17,831 nt of DNA from Candidatus Venteria ishoeyi. GTDB lineage: Bacteria > Pseudomonadota > Gammaproteobacteria > Beggiatoales > Beggiatoaceae. The translations under genes were made by a program, and so were the position numbers. The notes beneath the pieces were generated by a model. The model saw only the letters and a list, made by a program, of their open reading frames with translations, did not search any database and had not been told where the DNA came from. The stretch's first letter is position 1, and each line of letters starts with the position of its first letter. Positions 142 through 4,373 of this stretch are shown piece by piece. The stretch covers positions 1-17,831 of the forward strand of contig NZ_JAUCGJ010000033.1 of the NCBI RefSeq assembly GCF_030378065.1, written 5' to 3'.

Positions 142-786
142 ATGATGCATAAAATATTATCAATATTCTATTGTCTGGCACTATTGCTACCATTAAACAG
201 CAGTTTCGCCAGAGAAGTGAATATTACCGCAGATCTGCCCAGTATTATCGTAAAACATCAGGGAAAAACGGTTATTATTGAGCGTAGCCAGGATACGATG
301 AATAGCATTATGCCGGATTTTGCATTGACTTCACGGCCTTGTCCACCATTGTGTATCCAACCGATGCAACTGGCCACCGGTGTGGAAACCGTGGCGGAGC
401 TTGAGGTGCTGGATTATCTGCAACGCTGGCATCAGGGTGATGACACGATTTTAGTGGTGGATTCACGGGTTGCGAATCAGTTTAAACGCAGCACCATTCC
501 CGGAACGCTTAATATTCCCTGGACTGCGCTCAGCGGCAGCGCGAATCCGATGGAGATCAGCGAAATTTTAAGTAACCGGTTTAATGTGGTGGAAATGGAA
601 GGTTTATACGACTTCAGTCAGGCAAAAACCTTGGTAATGTTTTGTAATGGCGCATGGTGTGGGCAATCGCCTAATAATATTAAAGTGCTGCTGAAATATG
701 GTTATCCTGCGCATAAGATTAAATGGTATCGTGGTGGTATGCAGGACTGGGAGTCTTTTGGTTTAACCACCGTGAGTGGAAAATAA
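142..786 (+). CDS. Secreted/periplasmic rhodanese-like (sulfurtransferase-fold) domain protein
   Basis: 214-aa ORF with AAGGGA RBS about 6 nt upstream of the ATG. N-terminal signal peptide MMHKILSIFYCLALLLPLNSSFA. C-terminal rhodanese-type catalytic-loop Cys context (MFCNGAWCGQSP) and WYRGGMQDW. Confidence 0.75.
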   Translation: MMHKILSIFYCLALLLPLNSSFAREVNITADLPSIIVKHQGKTVIIERSQDTMNSIMPDFALTSRPCPPLCIQPMQLATGVETVAELEVLDYLQRWHQGDDTILVVDSRVANQFKRSTIPGTLNIPWTALSGSANPMEISEILSNRFNVVEMEGLYDFSQAKTLVMFCNGAWCGQSPNNIKVLLKYGYPAHKIKWYRGGMQDWESFGLTTVSGK

Positions 787-833: not shown

Positions 834-970
834 AACGTCTCCGTCTCACGCTGAGTCGTTGTTAGCGTTTACGCTATTTTCTTAAAAAACCTTACACCAA
901 CTTCAAGCTAAGGAGTGAGGATAAAATAAATACAGAAACTGGGCGCAGGATTTTTATTCATTTTCAAGGC

Positions 971-1010
971 GTGAAAACAGGTGCATAGCAAGCTATGTAA
1001 CTGTTTTCAC
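971..1010. promoter_or_regulatory. 40-nt nested palindrome (GTGAAAACAG-gtg-CATAGC-aa-GCTATG-taa-CTGTTTTCAC) about 80 bp upstream of the low-complexity protein gene; candidate operator or 5'-UTR hairpin
   Basis: Outer 10-bp arms and inner 6-bp arms are perfect inverted repeats. It lies in the 306-bp intergenic region between the rhodanese gene and the ORF starting at 1093. Confidence 0.3.
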
Positions 1011-1092
1011 AACGTAGAAAATGGAGAAAAAGACCAGCCAGGTTGCTGAAGTTATAAAATTCTCACTCCTAAGTAGTAGCAGGAGTATTAAA

Positions 1093-2181
1093 ATGATTAA
1101 GCATAAGTATTTATTGATGATTGCCGTATTTGGCACCAGCGCGTTGCCCGAATTGGTCAGTGCATTTAATTTTGGCGATATGATGCCTTTTTTTTCAAAT
1201 AATAATAATAATAACCGCGATGATTATGAGCAACAATATGGTTATCCGCCACATCCTGGTGGGCCTTATGGCTGGGGTGGACCCGGCGCTTATCCACCCG
1301 CTGCTTATGGACAACCCTATGCGCCGCCAGGTTATGCTCACTGGCCCCAACCCCCTCAACCTCAGGGCGCAGGTAGCCGCCCTAACAGCAATACAGCCGG
1401 ACAAGGCAGTAATAATCCGTATGCGCCACCACCACCGCCGCCAGTGATGGATAATGATAATAATGCAACGATTACCCGCCAACATACAATCAGTGGCAGG
1501 CCTGGTAATCAGCAGCATTCATATTCTTATTCGTATAATTATTCCCGTCAGAATCCCGCTCAGCCATTAGTGCGTGGCATGGAAGGGGGGCGCTCCTCCG
1601 GGACTAAGCCTTTAAGCAATGCTGAAGCACCCGCTTATAAACCGGGCGAACGGCCTGCACCAGACAGCTTCAGAAGCCATCGTGGTGGTCGTAGCGGCAT
1701 GGGCATGGGCGCACCTGATTCGCGTTCATCTTATTCCAGAAATTATAGCGGCAGCGGCAGTGGCATGGGTTCAGGTTCCCGTTCCGGTTATTCCCGCAAT
1801 GATGGCGGCATGAGATCATTTCAGCCTTATCCACCCGCATATCCAGGACATCAGGGCGGCATGGAACCCAGCCGTTTTCCAGCTAAGCAAGACCCACGCA
1901 GTAGCGACAATGCAGGCAACGCACCACCTGCCAGTTATTATGCCGGGCCGGGTTACGCGCAATCCGGGCCACCTGCGCAACGTACTCAGCCACCCCAGTC
2001 ACCGACCAGCAGTCGTACAAATACACCGAAAAAGGTACTGAACCCGAACACCGGGCAGGTGGAATATGATTATAAGCCACCTGCCAGCGGCGTATATAAC
2101 GCGCCAACCGGCAGTCAATACGCACCGCCTGCGGGCAGTGCTTTTGTACCGGAGCAAACCTATCCCGGACAATATCAATAA
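1093..2181 (+). CDS. Secreted low-complexity Pro/Gly/Tyr/Ser/Asn-rich protein (intrinsically disordered, FUS-like composition), unknown function
   Basis: I prefer the start at 1093 (MIKHKYLLMIAVFGTSALPELVSA, a classic signal peptide with AXA-like cleavage VSA|F), with AGGAG 7 nt upstream. The six-frame ORF opens at 1021. The rest of the protein is low complexity (YGYPPHPGGPYGWGGPGAYPPAAYGQPYAPPGYAHWPQPPQP, SYSYSYNYS, GSGSGMGSGSRSGYSR) with no recognisable globular domain. Its stop overlaps the next gene's ATG (TAATG). Antisense ORFs here are artefacts of low complexity. Confidence 0.6.
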   Translation: MIKHKYLLMIAVFGTSALPELVSAFNFGDMMPFFSNNNNNNRDDYEQQYGYPPHPGGPYGWGGPGAYPPAAYGQPYAPPGYAHWPQPPQPQGAGSRPNSNTAGQGSNNPYAPPPPPPVMDNDNNATITRQHTISGRPGNQQHSYSYSYNYSRQNPAQPLVRGMEGGRSSGTKPLSNAEAPAYKPGERPAPDSFRSHRGGRSGMGMGAPDSRSSYSRNYSGSGSGMGSGSRSGYSRNDGGMRSFQPYPPAYPGHQGGMEPSRFPAKQDPRSSDNAGNAPPASYYAGPGYAQSGPPAQRTQPPQSPTSSRTNTPKKVLNPNTGQVEYDYKPPASGVYNAPTGSQYAPPAGSAFVPEQTYPGQYQ

Positions 2182-2699
2182 TGAGTTATATCCAACGCAA
2201 GGCCATCTATCAGGGTCACATCGTTGATGTGGGTCTGGAAACTTTTCAACCGGAAGGTCATGAGCCGTTTGAATTTGAAATTGTGCGTCATCCCGGTGGG
2301 GCGGCAGTGGTCGCCTTAAATGAACAAAATCAGGTGTGTTTATTGCGCCAGTATCGTCCAGCGGTAAATGGCTGGATTTGGGAGATTCCCGCAGGTAAAA
2401 TTGATTTTGAAGAACCACCACGGCAAACAGCAGAACGCGAACTGCAAGAAGAAGTCGGTTTACAGGCGAATGACTGGGATGACTTGGGGGATATGTTCAG
2501 TTCCCCCGGTTTTTGTAATGAGATAGTCTCCTTATATCTTGCCAGAACGCTGACCCAAGGCGCGCACAACCGTGAGCCACATGAGTTGATGGAAGTGCAT
2601 TGGGTTGATTTCAGCACCGCGCTGGAATGGGCGCAAAGCAATAAAATACGTGATGCTAAAACAGTGATTGCTTTATACCGGAGTCAGGCTTTGCTTTGA
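2181..2699 (+). CDS. Nudix hydrolase (ADP-ribose pyrophosphatase-like)
   Basis: 172 aa. Nudix box GKIDFEEPPRQTAERELQEEVGL (GX5EX7REUXEEXGU pattern). Start overlaps the upstream stop, implying translational coupling. Confidence 0.85.
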   Translation: MSYIQRKAIYQGHIVDVGLETFQPEGHEPFEFEIVRHPGGAAVVALNEQNQVCLLRQYRPAVNGWIWEIPAGKIDFEEPPRQTAERELQEEVGLQANDWDDLGDMFSSPGFCNEIVSLYLARTLTQGAHNREPHELMEVHWVDFSTALEWAQSNKIRDAKTVIALYRSQALL

Positions 2700-3785: not shown

Positions 3786-4082
3786 ATGGAAATCAGGTGC
3801 TTAATTAGAAGCGATGGCAATATATACGTTGCTATGAGCCTAGATTTTGGGTTAGCCGCACAAGCAGAAAGCATCGCCGCTGCAAAAGGTAAACTTGAAG
3901 CGCAAATCGAAGAGTATATCCGTGAGGCTTGCGAGCAAGATTCAGCATATAAAAGCAAGCTATTAGCCAGAAAAGGTCCGTTTAGTTGGTTCATAATCTA
4001 CTACTTGGCAAAACTGCACATAAAAAGCAGAGAAATACTCGCGTTCACTGAAAGAAAGCCAACTTGCATTGGACATGCGTGA
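3786..4082 (+). CDS. hicB: HicB-like antitoxin (N-terminal RNase-H-like HicB domain; atypical C-terminal tail)
   Basis: GGAGA RBS. Residues 1-50 (IRSDGNIYVAMSLDFGLAAQAESIAAAKGKLEAQIEEYIREA) fit the HicB_lk_antitox pattern (..GYvA.vpdlPGcxtqGeTxEEAxxnxxEAIelxLE). The gene sits in an AT-rich islet immediately upstream of a HicA-like ORF. The C-terminal 40 aa are not recognisable and may be degenerate. Confidence 0.5.
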   Translation: MEIRCLIRSDGNIYVAMSLDFGLAAQAESIAAAKGKLEAQIEEYIREACEQDSAYKSKLLARKGPFSWFIIYYLAKLHIKSREILAFTERKPTCIGHA

Positions 4083-4091
4083 GCGACTTAG

Positions 4092-4373
4092 ATGTTCTTT
4101 AGAAAAATTCCATCTCTCACATATAGGGATGTAATTAAAGGCTTGAAAAAACTTGGTTTTGAAAAGAGAAAAAATAAATCCACTGCGCATGAGCAATGGG
4201 TTGCAAATGATCCATTTAGGAAGGTTACTGTAGATAAACACATTGCCCCATTCTCAGAATTCCTCATAAAATCAATGGCGAAACAGGCCGGGGTTTCGAC
4301 AAACGAGTTTTGTAGTCTATGTAAAAATAAGAAATATAAACCATCTACCACGCCATCCCCTGAATCTGAATAA
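4092..4373 (+). CDS. hicA: HicA-family mRNA-interferase toxin (YcfA-like)
   Basis: 93 aa. LTYRDVIKGLKKLGFEKRKNKSTAHEQWVANDPFRKVTVDKHIAPFSEFLIKSMAKQAGVSTNEF matches the HicA consensus (kelikllekdGwelvrqkGSHhxfxhpdxxxvtvPxHxxkdlkxgtlksilkqagl), including the His of the GSHH region. It lies 9 bp downstream of the HicB-like ORF. AT-rich context. Confidence 0.6.
   Translation: MFFRKIPSLTYRDVIKGLKKLGFEKRKNKSTAHEQWVANDPFRKVTVDKHIAPFSEFLIKSMAKQAGVSTNEFCSLCKNKKYKPSTTPSPESE

Follow-up and report, generated by a model that had tools for sequence, protein, structure and literature searches.

A species-restricted low-complexity protein with a signal peptide, under strong purifying selection in Candidatus Venteria ishoeyi, and its comparison with sulfur-globule proteins

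The Pfam family SGP (PF17228) of sulfur-globule proteins includes SgpA, SgpB and SgpC of Allochromatium vinosum as well as ALG67575.1 of Beggiatoa leptomitoformis. The globule proteins known so far are exported by the Sec pathway, lack domains and have repetitive sequences; some of them are lineage-restricted, and the Sgp proteins of A. vinosum have been described as extremely hydrophobic (PMC10386293). A further protein of the same organism, SgpD (Alvin_2515), is Sec-exported and globule-associated, is not homologous to SgpA-C, is almost confined to Chromatiaceae and is repetitive with regularly spaced prolines (PMC10386293). For the Beggiatoaceae, experimental support exists for only one small SGP-type protein (PMC7356093), and the globule protein of Beggiatoa leptomitoformis (ALG67575.1) was recognised only from its signal peptide and its Pro-rich low complexity (PMC7356093). 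Little is known about how the large colourless sulfur bacteria organise their stored sulfur. Candidatus Venteria ishoeyi stores sulfur in periplasmic globules, and sulfur globules have been observed in its filaments (PMC5728499).

We analyzed a stretch of 17,831 nucleotides from this organism (the window), in which the product of one gene is recorded as “hypothetical protein QUF61_11845” of Candidatus Venteria ishoeyi (MDM8547178.1 / WP_289681855.1) and is referred to here as the orphan. The gene and the features around it are as follows:

142..786, + strand: upstream, co-directional rhodanese-domain gene (PF00581, E = 4e-10; weak NCBIfam rhodanese-type matches)
900..1086, + strand: imperfect palindrome or long hairpin of ~187 nt, directly upstream of the orphan gene and ending in the Shine-Dalgarno sequence
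1081..1085, + strand: Shine-Dalgarno AGGAG, read from sequence, 7 nt 5' of the ATG at 1093
1093..2181, + strand: coding sequence of the orphan, a low-complexity protein predicted to be exported (ORF list; 362 aa, 362 codons)
1093..1164, + strand: Sec-type signal peptide, residues 1-24, read from sequence, with a predicted cut at A24/F25
1165..1362, + strand: aromatic Gly/Pro block, residues 25-90 (FNFGDMMPFF, poly-Asn, YGYPPHPGGPYGWGGPGAYPPAAYGQPYAPPGYAHWPQPPQP)
1198..1214, + strand: (AAT)n microsatellite encoding poly-Asn (Tandem Repeats Finder), with 6 versus 7 Asn between strains
1510..1812, + strand: Ser/Tyr/Arg/Gly/Met block, residues 140-240 (SYSYSYNYS ... RGGRSGMGMG ... SYSRNYSGSGSGMGSGSRSGYSRNDGGM)
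2029..2070, + strand: predicted small beta-hairpin, about residues 313-326 (KVLNPNTGQVEYDY; AlphaFold2 (AF2) strands 314-316 and 323-325)
2179..2183, + strand: TAATG stop/start overlap with the NUDIX hydrolase gene (2181..2699), read from sequence

The coding status of the gene was assessed by comparison with strain GCA_900099115.2 (L001), whose DNA is 99% identical and which served for the dN/dS estimate; homologue searches recovered only the orphan itself and its allele. The two strains differ by eight synonymous third-position changes and one non-synonymous change, the latter being the conservative substitution V12I inside the signal peptide. The sequence-only reading had proposed this frame as coding and had named a frameshift in relatives as evidence against it; the second strain is unshifted, and the only indel is a single in-frame codon (3 nt) in the poly-Asn (AAT)n tract. 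Apart from this codon, the 338 mature residues show no amino-acid change against eight synonymous changes between the two strains. The resulting values (dS 0.033, dN 0.0012, dN/dS 0.036; P = 5e-5 against neutrality) derive from only nine substitutions between two very close strains, and glmS in the same window has an equal dN/dS ratio. The gene is thus under strong purifying selection.

The open stretch comprises 386 codons compared to a maximum of 237 among 500 shuffles, and the other five frames contain 9-32 stops each. Antisense coding was ruled out, since the antisense frame sharing third positions, which also gives 8 synonymous to 1 non-synonymous changes, is interrupted by 30 stops. Both GC3 (0.43) and the synonymous-codon score (0.145) lie inside the range of neighbouring native genes, ruling out a foreign origin, and the raised GC content (53%) is due to codon positions 1 and 2, i.e. 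to amino-acid composition. Based on the low dN/dS, the native codon usage and the closure of the other frames, we are nearly certain that 1093..2181(+) is a real protein-coding gene of Candidatus Venteria ishoeyi, as had been proposed. An alternative upstream ATG at 1021 would give a 386-aa reading of the same ORF; we placed the start at 1093 because AGGAG lies 7 nt before it and because the NCBI annotation of both strains begins there. At the 3' end, the suggested coupling to the next gene is visible as the TAATG overlap with the start of the NUDIX gene, whose product carries the NUDIX domain PF00293 (E = 1.9e-19).

Direct reading of the N-terminus reproduces the tripartite layout of the canonical signal peptide that had been claimed, with a charged n-region (MIKHK), a hydrophobic h-region (YLLMIAVFGTSAL) and a c-region (PELVSA) carrying small residues at -3 (V) and -1 (A), in agreement with Sec/SPase I processing. 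AF2 places helices over this segment at residues 6-13 and 18-23. Export across the inner membrane by the Sec pathway is therefore probable, and the signal peptide would be removed after Ala24. Other export or sorting classes find no counterpart in the product: Cys is absent from the entire protein, so there is no lipobox; the n-region lacks a twin-arginine motif of the Tat type; the C-terminus (...YPGQYQ) and the single predicted hairpin do not show the traits of an outer-membrane beta-barrel; and neither a transmembrane segment nor a known peptidoglycan-binding domain was found.

The whole product of 362 aa is dominated by P (15.7%), G (13.0%), S (11.0%), A (8.6%), Y (8.0%), N (7.2%), Q (6.6%) and R (5.5%). 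Its mature part (338 aa, 36 kDa, pI 9.4, GRAVY -1.24) is of low complexity along its entire length, and all motifs quoted by the sequence-only reading were recovered (YGYPPHPGGPYGWGG, poly-Asn, PPPPPP, SYSYSYNYS, GSGSGMGSGSRSGYSR). Pro and Gly together make up 30% of the mature residues, ILVFMC sum to 7.8% and L, I and V to 3.3%, and the 20 Arg and 18 Asp and Glu residues are scattered along the chain. The aromatic block at residues 25-90 is rich in P (22.7%), G (15.2%), Y (12.1%), F (6.1%) and W (3.0%), and the block at residues 140-240 holds 13 of the 20 Arg, two YSRN, two SGMG and three GMG motifs.

Domain searches and the AF2 model detected no globular domain, in keeping with the earlier claim that none is present. 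The AF2 model, calculated from the single sequence without an alignment and hence weak evidence on disorder, has a mean pLDDT of 46 and a pTM of 0.16. In the same weak evidence, the hairpin block reaches a pLDDT of 65-68 versus ~44 elsewhere and is the only predicted structure apart from the signal-peptide helix. Considering the strong hydrophilicity, the Pro and Gly content, the scarcity of ILVFMC, the low pLDDT and the lack of any domain match, the mature product is very probably disordered and without a folded domain. Short motifs recur more often than composition would predict, with 19 repeated 4-mers compared to 3.5 +/- 1.9 in shuffles (among them three YAPP, two YSRN and two SGMG). Tandem repeats of the DNA were excluded as the source of the low complexity, since Tandem Repeats Finder reported nothing beyond (AAT)5.7 and three runs of hexamers with 2.5-3.7 copies.

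Next, we searched for relatives of the orphan. A word-indexed search of 5.8 billion proteins and a full HMMER search against 1.84 billion representatives returned only the protein itself and its allele, and nothing beyond chance was obtained from Pfam, NCBIfam, PHROGs, PADLOC or the PDB, where the closest chance-level matches were Serglycin (E = 0.5-0.7) and an MBP-trigger factor fusion chain (E = 0.17). By these searches, the protein has no detectable homologue outside Candidatus Venteria ishoeyi. A search space of about 15 billion proteins without a homologue might point to a gene that is young, lineage-specific and of little or no function, having arisen de novo or by runaway divergence, and that is kept mainly for 3'-end coupling or read-through to NUDIX-yicC. 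The TAATG overlap would fit such an origin, as would the existence of NUDIX-bearing relatives that lack the orphan gene and the large palindromic element just upstream, which suggests a rearranged region. However, a dN/dS of 0.036, at the level of glmS, together with native codon usage and a well-formed signal peptide and ribosome-binding site, which are unlikely in a non-functional ORF, makes this explanation quite improbable. Whatever its function, the gene bears on how disordered orphan genes persist, being a clean example of a species-restricted and wholly low-complexity orphan that is constrained like a housekeeping enzyme.

Because the host is a sulfur bacterium, we compared the orphan with the Gly/Tyr/Pro-rich sulfur-globule proteins. 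Both combine a Sec signal peptide with a domain-less low-complexity mature part in a gammaproteobacterial host that stores sulfur globules, and in both of them G, P and Y are over-represented and L, I, V, E, K and C under-represented. This match is qualitative: the mature orphan contains 13.6% G, 16.6% P and 8.3% Y, compared to 24.6%, 12.5% and 14.8% in SGPs and 5.8%, 4.8% and 2.6% in the other proteins of the window. The part nearest to SGPs in composition is the block at residues 25-90. On the other hand, the mature orphan (338 aa) is 3-4 times longer than the SGPs collected here (70-135 aa) and far poorer in Gly and in Trp (0.6% versus 9.4%). It contains more Ser, Asn, Gln and Arg, has a cationic character and is much more hydrophilic (GRAVY -1.24 versus -0.74). 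It also lacks the SGP landmarks, namely the AWWG mature N-terminus and the GDF-[NG]-[MF]-S-[MF]...G-R-G or GDFNMSMGGGGRG-type core. In SGP alignments A-W-W is invariant and followed by G in most members, and a Trp/Gly-rich block is present as well, whereas the mature orphan starts with FNFGDMMPFF and contains two Trp residues.

Profile searches led to the same result. No match to Pfam SGP was found at E <= 1 with the full-length protein or at E <= 10 with the mature part. With a custom HMM of 26 SGP sequences and the bias correction switched off, the orphan scored 22.5 bits, a value equalled or exceeded by 28% (142/500) of locally and 8% (38/500) of globally shuffled copies, and the sole weak alignment (residues 42-78) was equalled by shuffled copies as well. 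The resemblance is hence purely compositional, this control ruled out the N-terminal block as a diverged SGP domain, and on the evidence of these profiles the orphan is not an SGP homologue. A remnant SGP gene was likewise absent at E < 0.1 from the six-frame translation of both strands of the window and of L001. Searching the protein database with the SGP profile gave 25 matches, none from Venteria; a single NCBI-sourced match of initially unclear origin was traced to another genome. As the known Beggiatoa proteins were missed too, this negative result is weak. A pattern search based on a Beggiatoaceae-centred SGP alignment yielded 18 SGP loci, which belong to Chromatiaceae, Thiotrichales and further gammaproteobacterial MAGs and do not include Venteria; since Beggiatoa itself was not returned either, the absence of an SGP from Venteria is not demonstrable from this search.

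The gene neighbourhood adds a positional likeness. Of the five nearest genomes that carry the NUDIX gene, four (L003, L005, L007, L030) have a PF17228 SGP gene one to two genes upstream of NUDIX. The encoded proteins score 17.7-30.7 bits against a Pfam cut-off of 26.7, which two of them exceed, and they likewise combine a signal peptide with a body rich in Gly, Tyr and Pro. In Venteria, the orphan gene is directly upstream of NUDIX and is itself preceded by the rhodanese gene, whose product has a signal-like N-terminus (MMHKILSIFYCLALLLPLNSSFA) and is probably a periplasmic sulfurtransferase-like protein. While the NUDIX-proximal position is thus shared with the SGP genes of relatives, those genes lie on the opposite strand and diverge from NUDIX, whereas the orphan gene is on the NUDIX strand. 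Two different sets of flanking genes surround the relatives' SGP genes, one of them being common to three of the four genomes, and synteny is otherwise poor.

Taken together, we tentatively favour a role of the orphan in the coat or matrix of the sulfur globule, as a functional analogue of Sgp proteins and not as a homologue, although this remains a possibility rather than a likelihood. The protein would be a multivalent structural polypeptide of a periplasmic matrix or coat, with the sulfur-globule envelope as the likeliest site. The aromatic Gly/Pro block (residues 25-90) might bind the hydrophobic sulfur surface or an SGP layer, and the long cationic Ser/Arg/Gly/Pro/Gln tail might extend as a hydrated brush, keeping the globules stable or apart from one another. 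SgpD provides a precedent for lineage-specific, non-homologous globule proteins. Its two confidently predicted alpha-helices, proposed to be coiled-coil-like (PMC10386293), have no counterpart in the orphan's mature part, and no similarity to SgpD emerged from whole-database searches, which gave only the orphan itself.

In a more far-reaching version, which we consider rather unlikely, the orphan would represent an unrecognised, non-homologous class of globule-coat proteins with a “diblock” layout, in which an aromatic anchor adsorbs zero-valent sulfur and a cationic disordered brush sets globule size, spacing or access, supplementing or replacing the canonical SGP of other Beggiatoaceae. If true, globule envelopes would consist of fast-evolving, compositionally convergent disordered proteins, possibly forming a condensate-like periplasmic coating. 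Association with globules would in any case make the orphan the second component, without homology to the first, and would illustrate a low-complexity scaffold outside the bacterial cytoplasm. Practical value is limited, and the organism is uncultured.

The sequence-only reading had described the product as FUS/RGG-like and as a possible condensate-forming, adhesive or matrix protein. In FUS-like low-complexity and RGG domains, [G/S]Y[G/S] and RGG repeats are closely packed and charged residues are otherwise few; such domains undergo phase separation, and the FUS low-complexity domain is much less proline-rich than the orphan. Part of the resemblance stands: the block at residues 140-240, to which the description best applies, contains Arg/Gly/Ser stretches and [S/G/N]-Y-[S/G] motifs (three SYS, three YSR and a GYS), the latter restricted to about residues 140-236, and follows a disordered, multivalent “sticker-spacer” grammar like that of the FUS low-complexity (SYGQ) and RGG regions. 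Other traits fit less well, with only one true RGG, 16% Pro and a cationic pI of 9.4. Compared to the nuclear or cytoplasmic FUS family, moreover, the orphan is predicted to be exported, its charges are scattered and it has no RNA-binding domain. No evolutionary relationship between the two is known, and the FUS-like or condensate description can be read as a loose analogy.

A bacterial parallel is CsgF, an extracytoplasmic curli assembly factor that forms condensates in vitro depending on aromatic (Phe) residues (PMC10133297). CsgF, however, is encoded in a conserved operon with the defined partners CsgG/CsgB, and the orphan shows neither such a context nor similarity to CsgF. With at least one extracytoplasmic bacterial condensate documented (CsgF), the orphan could also belong to the envelope or extracellular matrix and have nothing to do with sulfur storage. 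It might then contribute to the sheath, slime or adhesion of the gliding filament, or act as a cationic spacer at the peptidoglycan or outer membrane, through multivalent Tyr/Pro/Arg contacts and possibly as a condensate or gel. A signal peptide on a cationic, disordered, Tyr/Pro/Arg-rich chain with motif recurrence beyond composition would suit this role in a filamentous mat-former. Yet the anchoring and sorting features (Cys or lipobox, transmembrane segment, C-terminal aromatic outer-membrane protein signature, peptidoglycan-binding domain) are missing, no secretion-system or matrix genes were found nearby, and published descriptions of Venteria filaments call them narrow and non-vacuolated and do not mention a sheath, so that this alternative is possible rather than likely.

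The extreme hydrophilicity and disorder, the recurrent G-M motifs (RGMEGG, SGMGMG, SGMGSG, GGMRS, GGMEPS) and a habitat with steep sulfide and oxygen gradients could further suggest a soluble periplasmic protectant or buffer, such as an entropic bristle, a hydrophilin-like protein, a holdase-like chaperone or a Gly-Met/Tyr redox or metal buffer. We regard this as unlikely, given that the Met content of the mature protein (2.7%) hardly exceeds that of the window background (2.3%), that His- or Met-rich metal motifs, Cys and known chaperone features are lacking, and that the gene context lends no support.

Directly upstream of the gene, the palindrome contains nested inverted repeats (908-944/1037-1073, 951-965/1017-1031 and 971-989/992-1010). 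It is single copy within the window, and no credible Rfam family was assigned to it. The region 900..1086 could correspond either to a structured leader or to an intergenic element of palindromic type. The leader RNA is predicted to fold with an MFE of -71.8 kcal/mol (z = -9.1), and in this fold GGAGU at 1082-1086 pairs with ACUUC at 900-904 at the base of the hairpin.

The orphan gene occupies 1093..2181 (+), a 362-codon reading frame without interruption, within the gene order signal-peptide-bearing rhodanese, orphan gene, NUDIX, YicC, HicB, HicA and GlmS. The following features of this neighbourhood are relevant here:

142-786, + strand: rhodanese-domain gene; product with a signal-like N-terminus and, in its active-site region, CNGAWCGQS
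1081-1085, + strand: Shine-Dalgarno sequence AGGAG, at a 7-nt spacing from the ATG at 1093
3786-4373, + strand: HicB-like/HicA toxin-antitoxin pair between yicC and glmS

Because of this Shine-Dalgarno sequence, which the sequence-only reading had also pointed out, and because both public annotations begin at 1093, this ATG was taken as the start rather than the one at 1021, from which the same frame is already open. The database entry MDM8547178.1 / WP_289681855.1, labelled "hypothetical protein QUF61_11845", is an exact match (100% identity) to the product.

A real, native and strongly constrained gene that is restricted to one species is firmly supported. The species has a second assembly (GCA_900099115.2), which shows 99.1% identity across 7.7 kb. 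Eight of the nine substitutions in the ORF are synonymous, all at third positions (P of at least 8/9 under neutrality = 5e-5). The lone amino-acid replacement, V12I, is conservative and lies inside the signal peptide, and the lone indel is a whole AAT codon within a poly-Asn run. For the two strains, dS was 0.033, dN 0.0012 and dN/dS 0.036 (Nei-Gojobori), with 8 synonymous and 0 non-synonymous changes in the mature low-complexity part; glmS in the same window gave an equal ratio (17 synonymous, 2 non-synonymous). GC3 (0.43) and synonymous codon score (0.145) fall inside the range of native neighbours, the raised GC of the gene being contributed by codon positions 1 and 2. This is unlike the HicB-like/HicA pair, whose atypical codon score (-0.13 versus 0.10-0.28 in adjacent genes) and low GC suggest recent acquisition. 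The remaining five frames across the ORF contain 9-32 stops, including 30 in the antisense frame sharing third positions with the sense frame, and the open stretch of 386 codons compares with a maximum of 237 among shuffles of the region. The proposed coding frame held in the second strain, and neither a conserved antisense frame nor a frameshift, both named beforehand as refutations, was seen there. The gene also overlaps the next one, as the orphan stop and the NUDIX hydrolase start share TAATG. A young gene of marginal function, retained for its coupling to NUDIX, is the reading to which we give least credence, and the dN/dS speaks against it.

The sequence features of the product support an exported, essentially structureless protein. 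The signal peptide claimed earlier reads as a textbook Sec signal, made up of an n-region (MIKHK), h-region (YLLMIAVFGTSAL) and c-region (PELVSA; Val at -3, Ala at -1). The mature part (338 residues, 36 kDa, pI 9.4, GRAVY -1.24) consists largely of P (16.6%), G (13.6%), S (11.2%), Y (8.3%), A (8.3%), N (7.7%), Q (7.1%) and R (5.9%), with only 3.3% Leu+Ile+Val and no Cys. Repeated 4-mers are enriched (19 versus 3.5 +/- 1.9 in shuffles) and recurring short motifs include YAPP (three times), YPPA, PGYA, YSRN and SGMG, while repeats at the DNA level are trivial microsatellites only. All motifs quoted in the sequence-only reading occur in the product. Its label "FUS/RGG-like" applies to part of the grammar in residues 140-240 and is otherwise overstated, because the product has a single RGG, contains 16% Pro and carries charges all along the chain.

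In agreement with the predicted lack of a globular domain, no domain, family or structure match above chance was found in Pfam, NCBIfam, PHROGs, PADLOC or PDB, and a single-sequence AlphaFold2 model (mean pLDDT 46, pTM 0.16) contained no secondary structure other than the helix of the signal peptide and, at residues 314-325, a small hairpin. Within the mature part, only the surrounding segment KVLNPNTGQVEYDY (residues 313-326; window 2029-2070, +) is both free of low complexity and modelled with a degree of confidence (beta-hairpin, pLDDT 65-68); it may represent a short binding motif. We infer a multivalent structural polypeptide of the periplasmic compartment. A soluble, protective, disordered periplasmic protein appears unlikely.

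When 5.8 billion clustered proteins were searched by word index, the only match was the query cluster, which includes a 363-aa allele, and in a full HMMER search of 1.84 billion representatives of ~15 billion proteins the product matched itself only. This orphan status is notable together with the strong constraint. What is new is a protein without relatives, so far annotated only as hypothetical; its type, an exported structural protein of low complexity in a sulfur bacterium, has known precedents.

Ca. V. ishoeyi is an uncultured, filamentous, non-vacuolated sulfide oxidiser of the Beggiatoaceae, in which intracellular sulfur globules have been observed (PMC5728499; PMC11920609). The rhodanese protein matches the PQQ-associated CXXCW-motif family TIGR03865 only weakly (31 bits, cut-off 128) and is probably a periplasmic sulfurtransferase-like protein. 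We compared loci that hold the closest homologues of NUDIX, which share 63-69% identity with it. Of the five nearest genomes, four, which are related uncultured Gammaproteobacteria/Thiotrichales, have an opposite-strand gene of 102-112 codons just upstream of NUDIX:

L003, 4377-4685, - strand: divergent gene of sulfur globule protein (SGP) type
L005, 4521-4838, - strand: divergent SGP-type gene
L007, 4301-4624, - strand: divergent SGP-type gene
L030, 1243-1581, - strand: divergent SGP-type gene

The SGP gene adjoins NUDIX in three genomes, with one methyltransferase gene intervening in L030, and the arrangement was found in two different flanking contexts. The products carry a signal peptide ending AQA|WWG and a mature part with abundant Trp, Gly, Tyr and Pro. 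Of the three that were re-scanned with Pfam SGP (PF17228), two passed the gathering cut-off; for the fourth (L030) there is a precomputed weak match only. The four clearly share a family with ALG67575.1 of Beggiatoa leptomitoformis. That protein was picked out solely by a "cleavable N-terminal peptide" and "regularly spaced prolines", and its disruption abolished globule formation and lithotrophic growth (PMC7356093). The Thiotrichales MAG BB31 has at least two SGP genes (L007 and a further locus, L015).

A custom HMM from 26 SGP sequences was used to score the orphan protein and 1000 shuffled versions. With the HMMER composition correction on, the score was negative; with it off, the protein reached 22.5 bits, a score matched or beaten by 142 of the 500 copies in which shuffling was confined to 30-residue windows. 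The sole aligned stretch (residues 42-78) therefore reflects composition and was rejected as homology. No SGP landmark (AWWG start, Trp/Gly block, GDFNMSM...GRG core, 70-135-aa size) occurs in the product, and six-frame translation of the window and of the matching locus in the second assembly gave no SGP-like ORF. SGP profile and pattern searches returned no canonical SGP from Venteria; they also missed known Beggiatoa proteins, a sensitivity too low to conclude on a Venteria SGP. Like SGPs, the orphan protein is enriched in G/P/Y and depleted in aliphatic residues, Glu, Lys and Cys, whereas it has far less Trp (0.6% versus 9.4%), far more Ser, Asn, Gln and Arg, and is more hydrophilic. The most specific hypothesis the evidence allows, which we put forward tentatively, is a coat or matrix protein of the sulfur globules that is not homologous to SGPs. 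In this model, residues 25-90, the aromatic Gly/Pro block, would bind sulfur or SGPs, and a hydrated brush would be formed by the cationic Ser/Arg/Gly/Pro/Gln tail. A surface or matrix/adhesive protein without connection to sulfur is a rival reading of nearly the same, low probability. SgpD of Allochromatium vinosum, which is Sec-exported, located on globules, not homologous to SgpA-C and nearly confined to one family (PMC10386293), is a further precedent for such a lineage-restricted globule protein.

Most of the gap between the rhodanese and orphan genes is occupied by an imperfect palindrome of ~187 nt (900-1086, +). Inverted repeats in the window include:

908-944/1037-1073, 951-965/1017-1031, 971-989/992-1010: nested repeats of the ~187-nt palindrome
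791-853: second hairpin, 31-nt arms, 81% complementary, 1 nt between arms
863-885: GC-poor, terminator-like short hairpin and T-run, after the second hairpin
12871-13009: long inverted repeat whose 27-nt arms are 81% complementary and separated by 85 nt

As RNA, the ~187-nt palindrome has a predicted fold of -71.8 kcal/mol (z = -9.1), in which the base of the hairpin pairs with the Shine-Dalgarno sequence of the orphan gene. It has no Rfam match, no second copy within the window and one SNP between strains (position 982), and could be either a structured leader occluding the Shine-Dalgarno sequence or a MITE/REP-like element. The second hairpin begins 5 nt past the rhodanese stop codon and contains three of the five intergenic SNPs between strains. 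The repeat at 12871-13009 covers the entire gap between a CheW-like gene and a ChpA-like histidine kinase gene, and long palindromes between genes may be typical of the Venteria genome. Elsewhere in the window, 7336-9840 (-) encodes an unusual bacterial MVP-like protein of 834 aa, with a major-vault-protein shoulder domain (PF11978, precomputed annotation of the second assembly) and a long, Gln/Ala/Glu-rich, coiled-coil-like C-terminus.
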